From IMG/VR virus record IMGVR_UViG_2563366854_000001, positions 1-22,290 of that record: DNA of 22,290 bases. The stretch is one strand, 5' to 3'. Positions 5,454 to 14,756 of the stretch are shown one piece after another (the first letter of the stretch is position 1; every line of letters starts with the position of its first letter). The translations under genes were made by a program, and so were the position numbers. This DNA comes from a virus. Lineage: Duplodnaviria; Heunggongvirae; Uroviricota; Caudoviricetes. The notes under the pieces were generated by a model. That model saw only the letters and a list, made by a program, of their open reading frames with translations, had not been told where the DNA came from and did not search any database.

Positions 5454-6530
5454 TTACTTTGTAAGTTCTAGAACTCGTTGAGCCAGCCCTTTAAATTGTT
5501 CGTTAAAGGCGTCTCTGCTTGATTTCATTGTATTTAAGGCATGCCCAAATTGCCCTGAATCGCGAATTTGCTGATCACTGATGGAGAAAACAGGTGTCGC
5601 TAGTTGTTGGCTTATTGCGATTAATGAGTTGAAATCGGAAATATGCGCAAGATCATAGGCTGATAAATCTCCACTGACTGTTGTTTTGTTAATTGCATGT
5701 TGCACTTTATCTCGTGGAATTATGCAGGTAATTTTTTCTAGATTTGGCACTAAGATCGAATCAACAGCATCACGGATAGCTGCCATCCATTTTTCGAAAG
5801 ATTTTACAGGTGCTCCTTTACGCGGCCTGTATCTCTGCTGAATCATACCTAGAAACTGCGGTGCATTTTTAATTGATTGTGAAGAGTTACCATCATTATT
5901 TTCTTTAAATAATGCTAATTCTTTGTGCCAGCGAGGTATATTTTTTGAGAGAGAGCGAATTGCTTGCCAGCAAAAAAAGTCTGGAGCTACAGGTACGATA
6001 AAATAGTCACTTGACATGAGAACTACTTCATTTAAACCTCCAACATTAGGGCTGAGATCATAAAGAATGTAATCAATATTATTCTTCATGGCGATTAGCT
6101 GTAATATTTTTGGCAGGTTCCCTGGTATATTTCTTGTAGCAGGAATACCAGCAGCAATTTTTAGAGAAACACTTATCTGTGAATCTAAGTCCGAAACATC
6201 TAAATGTCCGGGAAGAAGCAGAAGGTTTTCATGCAGTGTAGGGTGTAATTTTCCCGTTTCTTTTTCAAGGTATGCTTCAGGTTGTCCGCCATTAATCAAA
6301 TATTCTACAATAGGTCCAAGAGTTAAGTTATCTCTGCTAGAATAAAAAGAATCTAAACCCTCATCAATCTTTTCATAGCCAAGAACCATTCCTGTTAGAT
6401 TACATTGCGAATCAAGGTCAACCATCAATACTTTCTTGCCTTCATCCGCAAGTGCCCATCCAAGATTGAAGGTTGTTGTGGTTTTACTTACCCCACCTTT
6501 ATGATTAAAAAAACAAATTGATTTTGTCAT
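5454..6530 (-). CDS. ParA/MinD-family P-loop ATPase with long C-terminal extension (orphan; no ParB partner seen)
   Basis: 358-aa ORF; deviant Walker A NHKGGVSKTTT near the N-terminus, VLMVDLDSQCNLT motif, Walker-B-like ILYDLSPNVGG; AGGA upstream of the ATG; AT-rich; same strand as and directly downstream of the cI-like repressor. Confidence 0.8.
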   Translation of the reverse strand: MTKSICFFNHKGGVSKTTTTFNLGWALADEGKKVLMVDLDSQCNLTGMVLGYEKIDEGLDSFYSSRDNLTLGPIVEYLINGGQPEAYLEKETGKLHPTLHENLLLLPGHLDVSDLDSQISVSLKIAAGIPATRNIPGNLPKILQLIAMKNNIDYILYDLSPNVGGLNEVVLMSSDYFIVPVAPDFFCWQAIRSLSKNIPRWHKELALFKENNDGNSSQSIKNAPQFLGMIQQRYRPRKGAPVKSFEKWMAAIRDAVDSILVPNLEKITCIIPRDKVQHAINKTTVSGDLSAYDLAHISDFNSLIAISQQLATPVFSISDQQIRDSGQFGHALNTMKSSRDAFNEQFKGLAQRVLELTK

Positions 6531-6700
6531 ATTTCTCTATCCTTTCGACCCCCAGCATATTGTAATTTACGCTGGGTGATTATTTTATATTGTTAATGAT
6601 AATGTTTAATAAAAATAAGAGAGTAAAACAACTATTAGTAATAGCACTTGCTTGATAAATATTATTTTTTCACCTTTAGTTCTATAGTCTAAACGAAGAA

Positions 6701-7462
6701 CTAAAGCCGGTTGTATTTAATTGATTCGTGTATCAATGCTTTGCCCATAACATAAAGTTGATCTTGGGACTTCTCATCAATGTACCATTTCTCATAGGCT
6801 GGATTATCCGAAAGAACGGCGAGTTTGTTGCCTTGCATTTGTAGACGTTTAACGTGGAACGTCTTACCATAAACGAAAGAGTAAACACCATCAGTTTGGA
6901 AGTTGCGAACAGAAATGTCGACAAACAGTCGATCTCCGGAAACTAGAGTAGGGGACATGCTGTCGCCATTTACAGTCATAACTTTAATATCATCTTGAGA
7001 ACGATTACCGAAAAGAGAACGGGCATGCTCTGTTGTGAACTCAATGGCGTAGAGCACATCAACATAGTCTGAAAGCATATAGGTTCCAGGTCCTGCGCTA
7101 ACGCTAAGATCCAAAACTTCTATCCTGTATACATCGGGTTTTGTTGGATTGGGGATGCTTGCCATTTCCTTACATCCTTCTCTCTCGCCAACACCATATT
7201 CTAAATATGAAGCTGATACCCCCAGAGCCAATGCAAGTTTATTCATGACAGAGGCACGAGGCTTCGCAGCGCCGATTGTGTATCGCCGCGCCATTTCATA
7301 TGTAACGCCCACAAGACTTTTGAGTTGGGTGACAGAAATTCCCTTGTTTGTCATTAGCTCGTTTAGTCTCTTGGCGAAATCTGGATACTTCTGTTCTTCT
7401 ACCATAGGTAGAAGGTTACTCGCATCACATACGCTAGTCATTTCTATTTTAAGTAGTTGCAT
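6701..7462 (-). CDS. cI-like prophage repressor (XRE-type HTH plus S24 LexA-like peptidase domain)
   Basis: HTH LMTNKGISVTQLKSLVGVTYEMARRY; Ala-Gly cleavage-site-like SAGPG; S24 motifs VNGDSMSPTL and KRL. Start is ambiguous (7462, 7441 or 7405) with no strong SD, so it may be leaderless. Confidence 0.85.
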   Translation of the reverse strand: MQLLKIEMTSVCDASNLLPMVEEQKYPDFAKRLNELMTNKGISVTQLKSLVGVTYEMARRYTIGAAKPRASVMNKLALALGVSASYLEYGVGEREGCKEMASIPNPTKPDVYRIEVLDLSVSAGPGTYMLSDYVDVLYAIEFTTEHARSLFGNRSQDDIKVMTVNGDSMSPTLVSGDRLFVDISVRNFQTDGVYSFVYGKTFHVKRLQMQGNKLAVLSDNPAYEKWYIDEKSQDQLYVMGKALIHESIKYNRL

Positions 7463-7503
7463 TCTGCTATTTTAAGTAGCATCATCCCTCTGAATTTCAG
7501 AGG
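7444..7503. promoter_or_regulatory. Immunity-region operators between cI and cro
   Basis: Two identical 13-bp copies CTATTTTAAGTAG (7444-7456 and 7467-7479, 23 bp centre to centre) plus palindrome CCTCTGAA-T-TTCAGAGG (7487-7503) overlapping the cro SD. Confidence 0.55.
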
Positions 7504-7511
7504 AGAAAGGT

Positions 7512-7775
7512 ATGTCATCTCAAAACTACACAGAGAAAGCAGTAAAAGCTGCGGGAAAATCTTTATCTGAAGTAGCCCGTCACTTTGGTTTTAAGTCCAC
7601 TCAATCCGTCGCTAATTGGGTAATTAACAATCAAGTCCCGTCAGAACGGGTTTTACAACTTTGTGAGTTGGGAAACTGGTCCGTGACCCCTCATGAACTG
7701 CGTCCTGATATTTACCCCAATCCAAATGATGGATTACCTGAGTGCTATTCAAAAGTTAGCGGTTCAGCTGCGTAA
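7512..7775 (+). CDS. Cro/YdaS-like HTH regulator
   Basis: 87-aa ORF with GGAGAAAGG upstream; divergent from cI across the operators; C-terminal ELRPDIY resembles the YdaS family (memory-based). Confidence 0.7.
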   Translation: MSSQNYTEKAVKAAGKSLSEVARHFGFKSTQSVANWVINNQVPSERVLQLCELGNWSVTPHELRPDIYPNPNDGLPECYSKVSGSAA

Positions 7776-7803
7776 ACGTAACCACAGAAACGAGGAGTTA
7801 ACC

Positions 7804-8355
7804 GTGGGTAAGCATCACTGGAAAATAGAAAAACAGCCTGAGTGGTACGTGAAAGCTGTCAGAAAAACTATCGCAGCGTTGCCGGGGGGTTACGCTGAAG
7901 CTGCTGACTGGCTGGACGTAACAGAGAACGCATTATTTAACCGCCTTCGTGCCGATGGCGATCAGATTTTCCCGCTGGGATGGGCAATGGTTTTACAGCG
8001 TGCTGGTGGCACTCACTTCATTGCTGATGCTGTGGCGCAGTCTGCAAATGGCGTATTTGTGTCTCTTCCTGACGTCGAGGATGTGGACAACGCCGATATT
8101 AACCAGCGTCTGCTGGAAGTCATTGAACAGATCGGCAGTTATTCAAAACAGATTCGTTCAGCAATCGAAGACGGTGTAGTGGAACCGCATGAGAAGACAG
8201 CAATTAACGACGAGCTGTATCTCTCAATTTCGAAGCTGCAGGAGCATGCAGCACTGGTCTACAAAATCTTTTGCATTTCAGAAAGTAATGACGCCCGCGA
8301 GTGTGCAGCTCCGGGCGCCGTGGCGTGTCGTGACTGTGGAGAAACTAACGCATGA
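7804..8355 (+). CDS. YdaT-like protein (putative CII-type regulator)
   Basis: Start placed at GTG 7804-7806, 7 nt after GAGGAG and just after the cro stop; the ATG-initiated 7693 ORF would overlap cro by 80 nt. Assignment is by position and size. Confidence 0.5.
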
Positions 8356-8707
8356 ACAGTTTAACAACACACTACCGTCGCTCGCAACTGATTGCGCTTC
8401 CTGTACCGGGTGGAAAAGCGAAGGTGGAATATTGCTATGCAGTGAATGTACCAGGTGACAGGGAAATTGTAACCCACAGCTTTGCTGAGTGGGCTGTGGG
8501 TGATTTCAACCGGCAGAAGGAGACAGTCCTTTGCGACAAGTTAACCGCTGGTTCAAAGATCACTACGGAGTGCCCGTCAGAGTCATTCGTTGGGAACCGG
8601 AAACACAACGTGTTATCTACCTCCGCGAAGGCTATGAGCATGAGTGCTTCAGCCCGCTCGAACAGTTTCGTCGTAAATTCAGGGAAATAGAGGTCGGTCA
8701 TGAGCAC
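8352..8707 (+). pseudogene. Small gene with apparent frame discontinuity (frameshifted or mis-sequenced)
   Basis: N-terminal part is in the frame starting at ATG 8352 (ATGA-coupled to the upstream stop); the protein-like C-terminal part ([49 protein letters not shown]) is in another frame from about 8504 and ends at 8707, overlapping the O-like start. The frame-0 tail after about 8530 is Ser-rich junk. Confidence 0.45.
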
Positions 8708-9641
8708 TAAATTAACCGGCTATGTATGGGATGGTTGCGCTGCATCAGGCATGAAATTATCCAGCGTGGCAATTATGGCCCGCCTGGCTGATTTCAGTAA
8801 TGACGAAGGTGTGTGCTGGCCATCAATTGAAACCATTGCCCGCCAGATTGGCGCGGGGATGAGTACCGTCAGAACGGCTATCGCACGGCTGGAAGCAGAA
8901 GGCTGGTTAACGCGTAGGGCGCGTCGCCAGGGTAACCGCAATGCGTCGAATGTTTATCAGCTTAACGTTGCGAAGCTTCAGGCAGCGGCATTTTCTCAAC
9001 TGTCAGATTCTGACCCGTCAAAATCTGACGCATCAAAATCTGACCCGTCAAAATTTGATGCGTCGAAATCTGGCAAAAAAGCGGGTTTTCACCCGTCAGA
9101 ATCTGGTGGGGATCCGTCAGTAAAATCAAAACATGATCCGTCAGATAAAAAAACTTCTCGTCCGGACGCTTCGCAACCGGACACGCAGACGGCTGAACAG
9201 GATTTTTTAACTCGCCATCCTGATGCGGTTGTATTCAGCCCTAAAAAGCGCCAGTGGGGGACGCAGGATGATTTGACCTGCGCACAGTGGCTCTGGAAAA
9301 AAATCATCGCCCTGTACGAGCATGCCGCCGAATGTGACGGCGAGGTGGTTCGTCCCAAAGAACCGAACTGGATAGCCTGGGCAAACGAAATTCGCCTGAT
9401 GTGTGTGCAGGATGGTCGTACTCATAAACAAATCTGCGAGATGTACAGCCGCGTCAGTCGCGATCCGTTCTGGTGCCGTAACGTGCTCAGCCCGTCGAAG
9501 CTGCGGGAAAAATGGGATGAGCTTTCCCTGCGCTTATCGCCGTCCGTCAGCACGTACACCGAAAAACGCGAAGACCCGTACTTCAAAGCCAGTTACGACA
9601 ACGTGGACTACAGCCAGATCCCGGCAGGATTCAGGGGGTGA
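8700..9641 (+). CDS. Replication initiator, lambda O-like
   Basis: 313 aa; N-terminal HTH-like region; internal low-complexity linker encoded by tandem DNA repeats (iterons), as in lambda O; GAGG 6 nt upstream of ATG. Confidence 0.75.
   Translation: MSTKLTGYVWDGCAASGMKLSSVAIMARLADFSNDEGVCWPSIETIARQIGAGMSTVRTAIARLEAEGWLTRRARRQGNRNASNVYQLNVAKLQAAAFSQLSDSDPSKSDASKSDPSKFDASKSGKKAGFHPSESGGDPSVKSKHDPSDKKTSRPDASQPDTQTAEQDFLTRHPDAVVFSPKKRQWGTQDDLTCAQWLWKKIIALYEHAAECDGEVVRPKEPNWIAWANEIRLMCVQDGRTHKQICEMYSRVSRDPFWCRNVLSPSKLREKWDELSLRLSPSVSTYTEKREDPYFKASYDNVDYSQIPAGFRG
9000..9150. repeat. Iteron array: candidate phage origin of replication inside the O-like gene
   Basis: At least five tandem units of about 15 bp (consensus near CCGTCAAAATCTGAC) at 9001-9074, further degenerate copies to about 9145, followed by an A-rich tract (GATAAAAAAA). 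Confidence 0.6.
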
Positions 9642-9643
9642 TC

Positions 9644-10132
9644 ATGAGTCTTTTGAATGACGTTCAGAAATTCATTGAAGCCCATCCGGGGTGTACTTCC
9701 GGAGACATTGCGGATGCTTTTGCAGGTTACTCACGACAGCGCGTTCTGCAGTCAGCAAGCAAGTTACGTCAGAGTGGGCGTGTGGCTCACCGTTGTGAAG
9801 GGGATACACGCAGACATTTCCCGCGGCTGACTGAGATACCGCAGGAGCCGGAACCGCAACCAGTTCGTGAATCCAGACCTGTGCGCAATTTCTATGTCGG
9901 CACTAACGATCCCCGGGTGATTTTGTGCCTGACCCGCCAGGCGGAAGAACTGGAGTCCAGGGGCTTATACCGTCGTGCTGCAACGGTGTGGATGGCGGCA
10001 TTCCGTGAAAGCCACTCCCAGCAAGAGCGAAACAATTTTCTTGCGCGTCGTGAGCGGTGTTTACGGAAAAGCAGCAAGCGCGCTGTATCGGGTGAAGAGT
10101 GGTATCTGTCAGGGAATTACGTGGGGGCTTAA
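9644..10132 (+). CDS. Hypothetical protein, possible PerC-like regulator
   Basis: ATG 9644 overlaps the O-like stop (TGATCATGA); segment ESRGLYRRAATVWMAAF resembles the PerC-family motif (from memory, low certainty). Confidence 0.45.
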   Translation: MSLLNDVQKFIEAHPGCTSGDIADAFAGYSRQRVLQSASKLRQSGRVAHRCEGDTRRHFPRLTEIPQEPEPQPVRESRPVRNFYVGTNDPRVILCLTRQAEELESRGLYRRAATVWMAAFRESHSQQERNNFLARRERCLRKSSKRAVSGEEWYLSGNYVGA

Positions 10133-10458
10133 TGACGACGTTAACTCAATGCCAGCAGCAGGTGCTGGATATGCTGATTTCTTACCAGAAAGAACGTGGC
10201 TTCCCGCCAACCAATCAGGAGGTGGCTACCATGCTGGGATACCGTTCAGTGAATGCAGCGGTGGAGCATCTTCGCGCACTGGAGAAAAAAGGCGTCATCA
10301 CGATAAAGCGTGGCGTGGCCCGGGGCATCACGCTTCATACCGCGGTGAAGGACGACGACAGCGAGGTGGCCGGGATTATCCGCGCACTGCTTGCTGGTGA
10401 GGAAAACGCCAGGCTGCGTGCAGCCCACTGGTTACATGAGAGGGGGCTGAAAGTATGA
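10132..10458 (+). CDS. LexA DNA-binding-domain-like protein lacking the S24 peptidase domain
   Basis: MTTLTQCQQQVLDML...GFPPTNQEVATMLGYRSVNAAVEHLRALEKKGVI...RGI aligns by eye with the LexA N-terminal winged HTH (LTARQQEVFDLI...[36 protein letters not shown]); only 108 aa; TAATG coupling with the upstream gene. Confidence 0.75.
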   Translation: MTTLTQCQQQVLDMLISYQKERGFPPTNQEVATMLGYRSVNAAVEHLRALEKKGVITIKRGVARGITLHTAVKDDDSEVAGIIRALLAGEENARLRAAHWLHERGLKV

Positions 10459-10844
10459 AGCTGATTCTGCCTTTTCCACCCAGCGTGAACACCTACTGGC
10501 GACACCCCAACAAAGTGGCATTTGCTGGTAAGAGCCTGATAAGCGCGGCGGGGCGAAAATTCCAGAGTGCGGCGTGCACAGCAATAGTTGAGCAGTTACG
10601 TCGTCTGCCGAAACCAACGTCGGCACCTGCTTCAGTGGAGATCGTGTTGTTTCCTCCGGATAACCGGATCCGCGATCTGGACAACTATAACAAGGCGCTG
10701 TTTGACGCCCTGACCCACGCGGGTGTGTGGGAAGACGACAGCCAGGTGAAAAGAATGCTGGTGGAGTGGGGACCGGTTATCCCGGAAGGGAAGGTCGAGA
10801 TCACTATCAGTAAGTACGAGAAAACGGCGGGTGCAGCCGCCTGA
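10455..10844 (+). CDS. rusA: RusA-family Holliday junction resolvase
   Basis: 129 aa; LPFPPSVNTYWRH and DLDNYNKALFDALT motifs characteristic of RusA; ATGA overlap with the upstream stop. Confidence 0.9.
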   Translation: MKLILPFPPSVNTYWRHPNKVAFAGKSLISAAGRKFQSAACTAIVEQLRRLPKPTSAPASVEIVLFPPDNRIRDLDNYNKALFDALTHAGVWEDDSQVKRMLVEWGPVIPEGKVEITISKYEKTAGAAA

Positions 10845-10863
10845 TCAAGAGGAGAAACGAAGT

Positions 10864-11661
10864 ATGAATAATCTGATGGTCATTGATGGTATTGAAGTTC
10901 GTCGTGATGCTTATGGGCGTTACAGCCTGAACGATCTGCACAGGGCTGCCGGTTCTCTGGATAAGCATAAGCCTGCATTCTGGCTCCGCAATGAGCAAAC
11001 TGAACGTTTAATAAGCGAGTTGCAGATTTGCAACTCGGTCAATATAGAGCCAGTTAACGTTATTCGTGGCGGAAATAACCAGGGGACGTATGTCTGCAAA
11101 GAACTGGTGTATGCCTATGCAATGTGGATCAGCCCGTCATTCCATCTGAAGGTGATCCGTACTTTCGATATGGTAACCAGCGCATCGGAAAAATTATCCG
11201 GGCAGGCTGCTGACAAGATGCAGGCTGGCGTGATTCTGCTGGACTTTATGCGCCGGGAGTTAAACCTGTCTAACTCTTCAGTGCTTGGTGCCTGTCAGAA
11301 ACTCCAGGAGGCTGTTGGCTTACCGAATCTGGCACCGCGCTATGCCATTGATGCTCCTGCTGACGCGCCTGATGGCTCAAGCCGTCCCACGCTGTCACTG
11401 AGTGCACTGCTGAAGCAGTATGGTATCCGCCTGACAGCTAATCAGGCATATCACCAGATGGTGAAGCTGGGGATCGTCGAGCAGCGCGAACGATACAGCC
11501 GTACCGCGATTAACAACATCAAAAAATTCTGGTCGCTGACAGCGAAAGGCTGCATGTTCGGCAAGAACATCACCAGTCCCGCAAATCCGCGCGAGACGCA
11601 GCCGCATTTCTTCGAATCCCGATTCCCTGAGCTGTTAAAGCTGCTCGATACCGTTCATTGA
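10864..11661 (+). CDS. KilA-N domain protein (Bro/antirepressor-like)
   Basis: Start at internal Met MNNLMVIDG (GAGGAGAAACGAAGT-ATG); N-terminal KilA-N-like pattern (YSLNDLHRAAG ... GTYVCKELVYAYAMWISPSFHLKVI). Confidence 0.75.
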   Translation: MNNLMVIDGIEVRRDAYGRYSLNDLHRAAGSLDKHKPAFWLRNEQTERLISELQICNSVNIEPVNVIRGGNNQGTYVCKELVYAYAMWISPSFHLKVIRTFDMVTSASEKLSGQAADKMQAGVILLDFMRRELNLSNSSVLGACQKLQEAVGLPNLAPRYAIDAPADAPDGSSRPTLSLSALLKQYGIRLTANQAYHQMVKLGIVEQRERYSRTAINNIKKFWSLTAKGCMFGKNITSPANPRETQPHFFESRFPELLKLLDTVH

Positions 11662-11662
11662 G

Positions 11663-12658
11663 GTGACCGTGAGAGCACTATTGACCCCTGAAATTGCCCC
11701 GCGTATGGGGATCGTATTGTTCAGGCCCGGTTCAGAGCTGATGCCCCTGTTTATGCAGGGGCGTGTACTGCTGGAGCCTGAGCCGGAGCATTATTCATCT
11801 TTCGCCAGTGGTGCCGTTCCCGCGGCATCACAACCGCTGGCGGATGATCCTGCCGTTCGGGCCGTGTTCCGTAATGAGGCAGTGATTCGTCGTGCTGGTG
11901 GGGTGGAATGTCTTGAAAGCTGGTTACTTCGTGAAAAAGGCTGCCAGTGGCCTCATTCCGACTGGCACAGCGAGAACATGACCACAATGCGACACGCGCC
12001 GGGCGCAATCCGTCTGTGCTGGCACTGCGATAATCAGTTACGTGATCAGTTCACGGAGCGGCTGGAATCAATGGCAACGGATAACTGTGCCCGTTGGGTG
12101 TTGTCTGTAGTCCGTCGGGATCTCGATTTTAATGATAACCATGCCGTGACAATGCCGGAACTGTGCTGGTGGCTGGTTCGTAATGACCTGGCGGATGCCT
12201 TACCGGAAAGCGCAGCCCGTAAGGCACTGAGATTACCGAAGTCTGTTTTGCCGTCTGTCACCCGGGAAAGTGACCTTGTGCCTTCGGTTCCTGCCACCAG
12301 CATTATCCAGGATAAAGCGAAAAAGGTGCTGGCGCTGAAAGTGGATCCGGAGTCGCCGGAGTCTTTTATGTTACGCCCCAAACGTCGTCGCTGGGTTAAT
12401 GAACAGTACACGCGCTGGGTTAAGACGCAGCCGTGTGCATGTTGTGGAAAGCCAGCTGATGATCCGCATCATCTGATAGGCCATGGTCAGGGTGGAATGG
12501 GTACAAAAGCGCATGACCTTTTTGTGCTGCCTTTGTGCAGAAAACACCACGACGAACTGCATGCGGATACCGTGGCATTTGAAGAGAAGTATGGCTCCCA
12601 GCTGGAGCTGATATTTCGTTTTATCGATCGCGCACTGGCGATTGGTGTGCTGGCCTGA
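11663..12658 (+). CDS. HNH-motif phage protein (DUF968-like)
   Basis: C-terminal [21 protein letters not shown]...[10 protein letters not shown] is Cys/His HNH-like; start uncertain (GTG 11663 or downstream ATG 11705). Confidence 0.65.
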
Positions 12659-12675
12659 TTTTGTGGAGAAAGTTA

Positions 12676-13059
12676 ATGCGTGATATTCAGATGGTTCTTG
12701 AACGTTGGGGAGCGTGGGCGGCTAATAATCATGAAGATGTGGCCTGGTCGTCCATTGCCGCCGGTTTTAAGGGATTAATTCCTTCAAAAGTAAAATCTCG
12801 CCCGCATTGTTGTGACGATGACGCGATGATCATTTGCGGGTGCATGGCCCGTCTGAAAAAGAACAACAGCGATTTACACGATTTATTAGTAGATTATTAT
12901 GTATGTGGTATGACATTCATGTCACTGGCAAGTAAGCATTGCTGCTCGGATGGTTATATCGGGAAAAGGTTACAGAAGGCTGAGGGCATAATTGAAGGGA
13001 TGTTAATGGCATTAGATATCCGGTTAGATATGGATATCGTTGCTAATAATTCTAATTGA
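12676..13059 (+). CDS. Q: Late-gene antiterminator Q
   Basis: Start at [22 protein letters not shown] (GGAGA-N7-ATG); Q-family-like sequence with Cys-rich zinc-binding region; sits upstream of a hairpin terminator and the lysis cassette. Confidence 0.8.
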
Positions 13060-13197
13060 TATGCAATTGTTTACTAAAAGTTATTAAAAATGGGGCGTGG
13101 AAACGCCCCCAAAATAAAGGGTAATATATAACAGAAGGTTTATATAGTAAGAAGCAAGGTAGTGCTTCTAAAGGAAGTGGCTTGAGGGCTCCACTTA

Positions 13198-13247: not shown

Positions 13248-14330
13248 TTAGAACTGATAAACCAGACCTACAGCGACGATGTCGTCGGTATCAATACCAG
13301 CTGTTTTGGTAAACTTACTATCGTCAATTAAGTTGATTTTGTAATCAACAAAAGTAGACATGTTTTTATTAAAGTAGTAAGTAGCACCGACATCGACATA
13401 CTTGACTAAGTCTCGGTCACCATGAACACCAAGGTCTTTACCTTTTGACTGAAGGTAAGCAACAGATGGGCGCAGACCGAAGTCAAACTGATATTGTGCT
13501 ACTGCTTCAAAGTTTTGTGCTTTGTTTGCAATATGGTTATTACCAAAAACGGTCATATTCTGAGTTTCAGAATATGTGGTAGCCAGATAGATATTGTTCG
13601 CATCATATTTCAGGCCTGCAGCCCATACTTCCGCATTTTTGCCGGAGGCATTGAATTTGCTCTTACCATAGGCGACCTGACCGTCAGTGCGATCTGATTT
13701 AGCATAGGTTGCACCCACGCCGAATCCTTCATACTCATAAGTAGTGGAGAAACCGAAACCATCACCATTGGCTTCAGTTACGTCAGTGCGGTCATTTTTA
13801 CCCTGATACTGAGCAGCAAAGTTCAGGCCATCGACCAGACCAAAGAAGTCGTTGTTACGATAAGTTGCAACACCAGTAGTGCGACCAGTCATGAACACAT
13901 CTGTTTGGGTCCAGGTATCACCACCGAATTCTGGCAGAACGTCAGTCCACGCACCGATGTCGTATGCTACACCGTAGTTACGGCCGTAATCGATGGAGCC
14001 GTAATCACCAAATTTCAGGCCTGCAAATGCAAGACGGGTTTTGTCTTTGGAAGAACCTTGAGATTCAGCACGGTTGCCTTTGAATTCATATTCCCACTGA
14101 CCGAAACCAGTCAGTTGATCGTTGATTTGGGTTTCACCTTTGAAGCCAAGACGGGCATAAGTAGTATCACCATCATCTGCATCATTAGAGGAGAAGTAGT
14201 GCTTGGCATTAACTTTCCCGTATAGATCCAGCTTGTTACTGTCTTTATTATAAATTTCAGCTGCCTGAGCAGACATCGCCATCAGTACTGATGCAGCTAC
14301 AGCAGAAATTGCCACTGTTAATTTTTTCAT
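13248..14330 (-). CDS. nmpC: Outer-membrane general porin, OmpC/NmpC family (lysogenic-conversion moron)
   Basis: Start at internal Met [23 protein letters not shown] (signal peptide); porin hallmarks AEIYNKD...LDLYGKV and C-terminal GLVYQF; lies between Q and the holin, as nmpC does in DLP12-type prophages. Confidence 0.85.
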
Positions 14331-14756
14331 TGTACGCCCTTTTTTTGAACTATTATTAAAAAATGATGTCACTGCGCGATAAATATTCATCTAATCAATG
14401 TGATTATTTCAAGATGTAAGTTTTAGTTTCTCATTTAATTTGTGAAGTAGATCTCTATTTTTATCTGAACCTTTTCTATCTAATCCTATTCATGGCTCTT
14501 GTCTGAACAAAAATAAATCTATTAGCTAATTTATATTAATGGCACTTATTTATAAGTGCTCTATAATTCTTTAGCTTAATTTAAACAAACTAAAAATAAC
14601 ATCGGAAATTATTAACTGATTATTTGTTGAAGTTTTCTTATGTATTTGTGGTGGTGTTTTGAACACTCGGTGGCATTCTCACAAATATCATTTAGTAGTT
14701 TACGTACGTAAAAAATTGGTTATGCTGTTAAGAGTGGTTACTTCGTCACACAGCTT

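Follow-up and report, generated by a model that had tools for sequence, protein, structure and literature searches.

The DNA analysed here (the window; 22,290 nucleotides, IMG/VR record IMGVR_UViG_2563366854_000001) is a lambdoid prophage of the SfII/SfIV/CPS-53 type, with its integrase at 1–1164. Its rightward early operon contains an O-like replication initiator gene (8700–9641, + strand), and within this gene lie an array of short palindromic repeats, or iterons, and a conserved block that follows them, which together form a candidate replication origin at 9002–9159. The array thus has the same operon location as the origin of phage lambda (ori-lambda). The product of the gene has 313 residues and matches PHROG 391 (‘replication initiation O-like’) from end to end (E 7e-134). 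It comprises an N-terminal winged-helix DNA-binding domain (residues 1–98, nucleotides 8700–8993, + strand), which is the presumed reader of the iterons, a linker, and a C-terminal helical domain (residues 162–313, nucleotides 9183–9641, + strand).

The N-terminal domain matches Pfam HTH_36 at residues 23–70 (E 4e-11), the other matches at this end of the protein being GntR and MarR-like winged helices. In an AlphaFold (AF2) model built on 21 homologues, the winged helix is formed by helices 43–50 and 54–66 and by a beta wing at residues 70–88. The linker, residues 102–160, has a predicted local distance difference test score (pLDDT) below 50 and is modelled as disordered, and the C-terminal helical domain is confidently predicted over residues 162–280, with pLDDT above 90. 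Foldseek returned weak matches only, all to generic winged helices of the MarR/ArsR type; no initiator structure was found among solved structures or Foldseek matches, and NCBIfam gave no specific match. Winged-helix proteins of the MarR/ArsR type typically bind palindromic DNA as dimers. The C-terminal domain is homologous to those of lambda O and of gp15 from phage phi80. Residues 131–277 are 35.6% identical to lambda O (E 2e-18, tblastn), the comparison of this domain with a lambda O profile by hhalign gives a probability of 99.6% (E 2.5e-24, 38% identity over 124 columns), and residues 167–278 are 34% identical to phi80 gp15 (E 2e-24, BLASTP). No match to the N-terminal domain of lambda O (Phage_rep_O) was found in Pfam, and hhalign aligns the C-terminal domain only.

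The array consists of six in-register copies of a repeat unit that can be read from the sequence as a 13-bp palindrome plus a 2-bp spacer, 15 bp in all. The copies have the consensus GTCAGAWTCTGAC and span 9002–9107, with start-to-start spacings of 15, 15, 15, 15, and 33 bp in a repeat search of the window. Iteron 1 (9002–9014, GTCAGATTCTGAC) is a perfect 13-bp palindrome, followed by iteron 2 (9017–9029, GTCAAAATCTGAC), iteron 3 (9032–9044, ATCAAAATCTGAC), iteron 4 (9047–9059, GTCAAAATTTGAT), and iteron 5 (9062–9074, GTCGAAATCTGGC), the most degenerate of the six. Each unit also pairs as an inverted repeat with the others, for example 9002–9014 with 9017–9029. A spacer at 9075–9094, with a run of six A (A6) at 9075–9080 and one of four T (T4) at 9086–9089, separates iteron 5 from iteron 6 (9095–9107, GTCAGAATCTGGT), which begins 33 bp after iteron 5 and is the best conserved site across genera. 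Among 44 homologues compared, the right part of this spacer, TTTTCACCC, belongs to a conserved block and the A-run is variable.

Tandem Repeats Finder describes 9009–9072 as a period-15 array (4.3 copies, 81% matches, score 86) and, alternatively, as one of period 30 (88% matches). When up to two mismatches are allowed, the pattern GTCARAWTCTGAC recovers the sites at 9002, 9017, 9032, 9047, 9062, and 9095, and outside the array it has a single stray match, at 13552. Counted on both strands, the window contains 13 hits against 2.15 expected, and none of 100 shuffles reached 13. The array is the sole multi-copy family of local direct repeats in the 22 kb window, where neither the pattern nor the repeat searches detected a second iteron cluster. 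All the units are in frame in the open reading frame 8700–9641, in which they encode LSDSDPSKSDASKSDPSKFDASKS, a DxSKS pentapeptide repeat. The repeats correspond to codons 101–136 of 313, and together with the boxes that follow to codons 101–153, which are almost exactly those of the linker predicted to be disordered. A preliminary description of this DNA had placed tandem repeats of about 15 bp at 9000–9150, inside an O-like gene, and had taken them to encode a low-complexity linker; all three statements are borne out. A search for promoter-like sites found none in the array or close to it. A terminator-like hairpin with a T-run on the minus strand (9082–9095), between iterons 5 and 6, was also considered; its stem is not conserved in relatives and it is probably fortuitous.

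To the right of iteron 6, the conserved block at 9111–9159 contains two GATCCGTCAG boxes, at 9111–9120 and 9135–9144, which are 24 bp apart and carry one Dam site (GATC) each, followed by a run of seven A (A7, 9147–9153). This block is common to all types of N-terminal domain (A, B, and C; see below). The least stable 41-mer of the gene, 9119–9159, at −47.5 kcal/mol, is found directly after the iterons. The phi80 gene has its least stable 41-mer (−47.7 kcal/mol, about equal to that of the window) just after the annotated gp15 sites, that of lambda O coincides with the known AT-rich region, and in type B, type C, and KpF5 homologues the stability minimum lies at the equivalent GATC-box stretch after the iterons. 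Because the minimum falls there, as in lambda, phi80, types B and C, and KpF5, we take 9111–9159 as the candidate unwinding region. A right origin arm, TCGTCAGAGAATTCTGG, is also common to lambda and phi80, and it still aligns with the site-6 region of the window (CCGTCAGAATCTGG).

Regarding the kind of selection that acts on this region, 80 genomic loci with relatives of the gene were collected, and 53 type-A genes that are less than 93% identical in the DNA of the N-terminal domain were kept. Their genera range from Escherichia to Proteus, Providencia, Yersinia, Pantoea, Rahnella, and Tatumella, and their median N-domain identity to the window is 75% for the DNA and 46% at third codon positions. 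In each of the 53, the linker contains 4–11 palindrome matches, and their frame is the same throughout; the spacing is exactly 15 bp in 217 of 270 cases, and the last site follows at a distance of 33 or 48 bp. Codon use was tested with a register-free codon count and with a fixed-anchor block. In the latter, an ungapped stretch of 60 nt from site 6 to the second GATC box, 93% of the genes have the commonest codon at columns with a conserved amino acid, compared with 53% in the N-domain, and third positions are conserved to 89% and 55%, respectively. Lysine is encoded by AAA and AAG in a ratio of 271:5 in the linker and 164:118 in the N-domain (Fisher 4e-35), and the TTT:TTC ratio for phenylalanine is 102:14 in the linker against 9:46 in the N-domain. 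Serine is encoded in the linker almost only by TCA or TCT, the commonest serine codon in the rest of the gene being AGC.

The variable residue of the pentapeptide (P, A, T, G, V, R, and others) is the one whose codon lies over the 2-bp spacer. The linker variants found within E. coli (viral contigs L171–L249) differ in the same codon, from P to T or Q, or by whole units (+2/−1), and the array copy number varies among close relatives, giving proteins of 303–337 residues, as is typical of iteron arrays. In phage phiP27 (L089, 1501–2427; around nt 1925–1965), a 1-nt deletion and a later, compensating 1-nt insertion shift the reading frame across GGCAAAAAAACGGTTTTGACCCTTCAGAATCTGG, which is read as KKTVLTLQNL instead of KKAGFHPSESG, with the DNA, including site 6, kept.

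These observations bear on the possibility that the region is a low-complexity protein linker and nothing more, that is, a DxSKS repeat expanded by slippage, without any role of the DNA in cis and with a codon uniformity that stems from recent duplication. The region does encode a disordered linker, its copy number shifts by whole units, and units within one genome share codons by descent. Nevertheless, this explanation fails because synonymous sites are fixed across genera in which those of the N-domain are nearly randomised, because codon use is biased and the varying amino acid is the spacer codon, and because the frame-shifted conservation of the DNA in phiP27 largely refutes it; palindromic units, moreover, are not predicted by any constraint on the protein. 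We consider it extremely improbable. As phiP27 keeps the DNA in another frame, it is the DNA and not the peptide that is conserved, and the comparison of these genes indicates that the repeat region is selected as DNA.

Selection on the nucleic acid could also reflect its structure, either as an mRNA hairpin with a role in translation or stability, or as a single-stranded DNA hairpin or cruciform acting as a primosome-assembly signal. Segment 8990–9160 folds at −49.5 kcal/mol, with a z-score of −5.0 relative to shuffles, but any row of tandem palindromes will automatically give a long hairpin of this kind. Conservation of the second hairpin is not seen: a consensus fold of 30 homologues reaches only −2.2 kcal/mol without a single compensatory pair, and the hairpin has an invariant 3′ arm but an unconstrained 5′ arm. 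Furthermore, a single 13-bp palindrome with a 1-nt centre cannot form a hairpin, yet it is the lone site 6 that is kept best, and Rfam gave no match in the window. A function of this kind can hardly be expected here.

Three types of N-terminal domain were distinguished, each with its own palindromes and all with the same 15-bp period. Type A, to which this window belongs, has GTCAGAWTCTGAC; type B, found in Qin/Rac-like E. coli prophages (L086), has GTCAAnnnTTGAC; and in type C the sites are TCCAGAWTCTGGA (L087) or TTCAGAWTCTGAA (L023, with phiP27 similar). Two further scans of viral contigs aimed at types B and C added little besides near-identical sequences from E. coli. Phages phiNP and YeP2 have the N-domain, repeats, and right-hand block of the window joined to an unrelated C-domain, and in P0035 and similar E. 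coli proteins a type-B N-domain is joined to the C-domain of the window. In lambda, phi80, and their relatives, the N-domain and the iterons set specificity, are inherited together, and are exchangeable against C-domains. Likewise, in the types compared here, the iteron sequence co-varies with the DNA-binding domain of the initiator, with the reservation that types B and C are represented by few examples.

This modularity raises the question of whether the right-hand block with its GATCCGTCAG boxes is a recombination patch at the module boundary, kept uniform by the exchange of N- and C-modules. The block does stand at the junction with unrelated C-domains in phiNP, YeP2, and phiP27, and exchange could contribute to the uniformity of a block that all N-domain types have in common. 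However, its near-complete synonymous identity across many genera would be hard to keep by exchange alone, and exchange would not explain why, in every type, the block falls at the least stable part of the gene. A right-hand origin arm is common to lambda and phi80 as well, and a recombination patch would cover part of the element only. As an account of the block, it is very improbable.

The interpretation that we favour, with a probability of about 0.78, is that 9002–9159 is the replication origin of this SfII/SfIV/CPS-53-type prophage, located inside its own initiator gene. By analogy with lambda, rightward early transcription would lead to expression of the O-like protein, whose winged-helix N-domains, as dimers, would bind the six 13-bp palindromes. 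Because five of the sites are packed at 15-bp spacing, neighbouring dimers would lie on roughly opposite faces of the helix. The bound dimers would together build a nucleoprotein complex resembling the O-some, the strain from this complex would melt the adjoining block 9111–9159, and the lambda-O-like C-terminal domain would bring in the replicative helicase. The origin DNA would also be translated as the disordered linker between the two domains, hence the DxSKS pentapeptide repeat.

What the comparative data directly show, in the palindromes and their type-specific variants, is the binding-site character of the array, which would also suit sites that the initiator binds without initiating replication, for autoregulation, for copy control by titration or a mechanism of the handcuffing type, or for anchoring, the true origin being elsewhere in the phage. 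The adjoining melting region is only moderately unstable, and the window has far less stable stretches, for example at 6579, 14514, and 4621. None of these contains repeats, however, whereas the conserved, least stable block of the gene abuts the array in all types; the array has a position homologous to that of two mapped origins, those of lambda and phi80, and its iteron cluster is the only one in the window. Binding without initiation is therefore regarded as improbable, although less so than the alternatives discussed above.

Several points weigh against the assignment of 9002–9159 as an origin. The instability of 9119–9159 is modest, at the 95th percentile of the window and with approximately 58% A+T, and weaker than that of the corresponding lambda O 41-mer (−44.4 kcal/mol). 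The centre-to-centre spacing of 15 bp is tighter than that of lambda, approximately 20–24 bp. No DnaA box, with up to one mismatch allowed, is found between 8418 and 9291, and the count of such boxes in the window is below chance. The gene that adjoins the initiator is yfdN and not a partner loader gene, and the lambda mechanism is not fully transferable. The cognate variation of iterons and N-domains rests on few independent sequences, approximately 7 of type B and 3–4 of type C, and the codon counts are not phylogenetically independent, though the effect is very large. Finally, no experimental evidence of binding or replication for this initiator family was found in the accessible literature.

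The arrangement follows the lambda layout, in which the origin is in gene O (PMC7466680). As in ori-lambda, it occupies the part of the initiator gene that encodes the linker joining the DNA-binding N-domain to the C-domain. Both have several direct repeats, each internally dyad-symmetric, and beyond these comes the stretch of the gene that melts most easily; the C-domains are homologous and, in the right arm, a remnant of similarity persists (lambda TCGTCAGAGAATTCTGG and window CCGTCAGAATCTGG). The preliminary description had seen here a mirror of the lambda origin within O, had suggested a comparison with the lambda iterons, and had noted an A-rich tract after the repeats. Its reading of the repeats as a candidate origin is supported by the present analysis, all of its computationally testable parts having held. 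The interdomain position, also that of the phi80 sites, and the dyad-symmetric direct repeats found there agree with lambda. The likeness does not extend to the N-domain, which is HTH_36, another family than the N-domain of lambda O, or to the length, spacing, and number of the iterons, which are six of 13 bp at 15 bp in the window and four of 19 bp at approximately 20–24 bp in lambda. The A-rich tract is present (A6 at 9075–9080 and A7 at 9147–9153) but modest, and the melting tract is shorter and weaker than that of lambda; in addition, the window has two conserved GATC boxes and no P-like gene downstream.

The GenBank record of phi80 annotates four gp15-binding sites inside gene 15, at residues 121–147, which is the same relative position as that of the array in the window. 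The 34% identity of the C-domains and the nearly equal stability of the flanking 41-mers (−47.7 and −47.5 kcal/mol) add to this likeness. The phi80 iterons, by contrast, are TCCCGAAAACGGGAA-like with a spacing of approximately 21 bp, they and the N-domain are unrelated to those of the window, and a P-like gene, 14, is found directly downstream in phi80. Iteron plasmids such as pSC101, R6K, and P1 also have a winged-helix Rep protein and tandem cognate repeats, variable in number, beside an unwinding region. Plasmid iterons are usually approximately 17–22 bp long, in helical phase, bound by Rep monomers, and located outside the rep gene with DnaA boxes nearby. The sites of the window differ from these in being palindromic, in their 15-bp spacing, and in their location inside the gene with no DnaA box nearby, and the window does not show the plasmid-type combination, in which iterons located outside rep are accompanied by DnaA boxes and by strongly AT-rich DNA. 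From these comparisons, the element is best described as a probable lambdoid origin inside an initiator gene, related to ori-lambda through the C-domain and the right origin arm, and its initiator cannot simply be counted among the lambda O proteins.

The type B prophages of the Qin/Rac type and phiP27 are closer relatives in that they have the same protein family, linker palindromes spaced by 15 bp, and a right-hand block with GATCCGTCAG. Their palindromes are different (type B, GTCAAnnnTTGAC), and so are the genes downstream: a DnaC-like loader is encoded there, in phiP27 together with a DnaB-like helicase, and the window has neither. The Rac origin oriJ, which may or may not be of this repeat type, is experimentally active (PMC3945230).

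Searches for domains and families in the window, including its early region (7400–13100), found no homologue of P, DnaC, or DnaB. In the absence of a loader gene, the helicase would be delivered by host factors or by an unrecognised partner. A recognisable loader is encoded within approximately 2.6 kb downstream in 10 of 81 related loci, and a DNA methyltransferase gene is present within the same distance in 50 of the 81, though not in the window. One tentative idea, which we regard as rather unlikely, is that the block TTTTSACCCGYCAGAATCTGG-N-GGGGATCCGTCAGTAA...GATCCRTCAGATAAAA may be an entry site for the host machinery in ‘initiator-solo’ phages, with firing gated by Dam methylation and SeqA at two to three invariant GATC sites. 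If this were true, the block would let phages that have an O-like protein and no P, DnaC, or DnaB load the host helicase, and the gating would explain the methyltransferase gene beside the initiator in those 50 loci. As a separate observation, a Dam-type methylase gene is located between the O-like gene and yfdN in SfII, PhiR29, and vB_EcoS-569R4; the window, where the two genes meet at 9638–9641, and SfIV are without it, yet both keep the invariant GATC sites of the candidate origin block.

The order of the genes around the initiator is as follows. The CI-like repressor (6701–7462, − strand) is followed by the Cro-like protein (7512–7775), a CII-like protein, a DUF4222 protein (8352–8690), and the O-like initiator (8700–9641), downstream of which are found yfdN (9638–10132, PerC-like), a protein with a LexA DNA-binding domain, RusA, KilA-N, an HNH/DUF968 protein, and Q. 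The small LexA-like open reading frame (10099–10458, + strand), two genes downstream of the initiator, amounts in essence to the DNA-binding domain (LexA_DNA_bind, E 4e-19); the peptidase domain is missing. Segment 8300–10200 shares 97–99% identity with SfII and SfIV of Shigella as well as with several phages of E. coli, and the initiator genes of SfII, SfIV, and PhiR29 are 98–99% identical to that of the window.

The replication module is a very common one. Sequences resembling the initiator gene were found in 3381 of 5426 complete E. coli genomes, nearly full length in 1580 of them. Phages carry the module as well, among them the serotype-converting SfII and SfIV of Shigella and phages of Klebsiella, Citrobacter, and Yersinia. 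The copy in E. coli K-12 (H34; also L007 and L008), which we take to be the gene named yfdO, adjoins yfdN and has lost its first 233 nt, and with them most of the DNA-binding domain. Because it keeps the iteron array and the C-domain, it would be, to judge from its sequence, an orphan origin without a functional initiator. No description of this origin was found in the accessible literature, including that on yfdO and on oriJ/ydaU, and the iteron sequence was not found in a relevant context; the paper on SfIV speaks of no more than a ‘replication module’.

The assignment of an origin to 9002–9159, together with the predicted recognition sequence, would make prophage induction and replication directly testable in these phages, as well as incompatibility or exclusion between co-resident prophages of different types and the action of an O-like initiator without a helicase loader of its own. 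It would also be a clear example, fit for a textbook, of coding sequence overprinted with a DNA element that acts in cis, a constraint that the protein tolerates because the region encodes a disordered linker. The lambda paradigm is extended by it and not challenged, and specialists would expect such an arrangement; what is new is a well-delimited and widely distributed probable origin for which the accessible literature yielded no description, and the question of helicase loading that comes with it.

Two further genes of the window were noted. A full-length gene for a Gram-negative porin (13248–14390, − strand; Porin_1, E 2e-151) is located between the Q-like antiterminator and the lysis genes, and it is probably a lysogenic-conversion ‘moron’. 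The leftward early region encodes a ParA/MinD-type ATPase (5454–6530, − strand; AAA_31, E 2e-29), which is classified in PHROG as a ‘ParA-like partition protein’.

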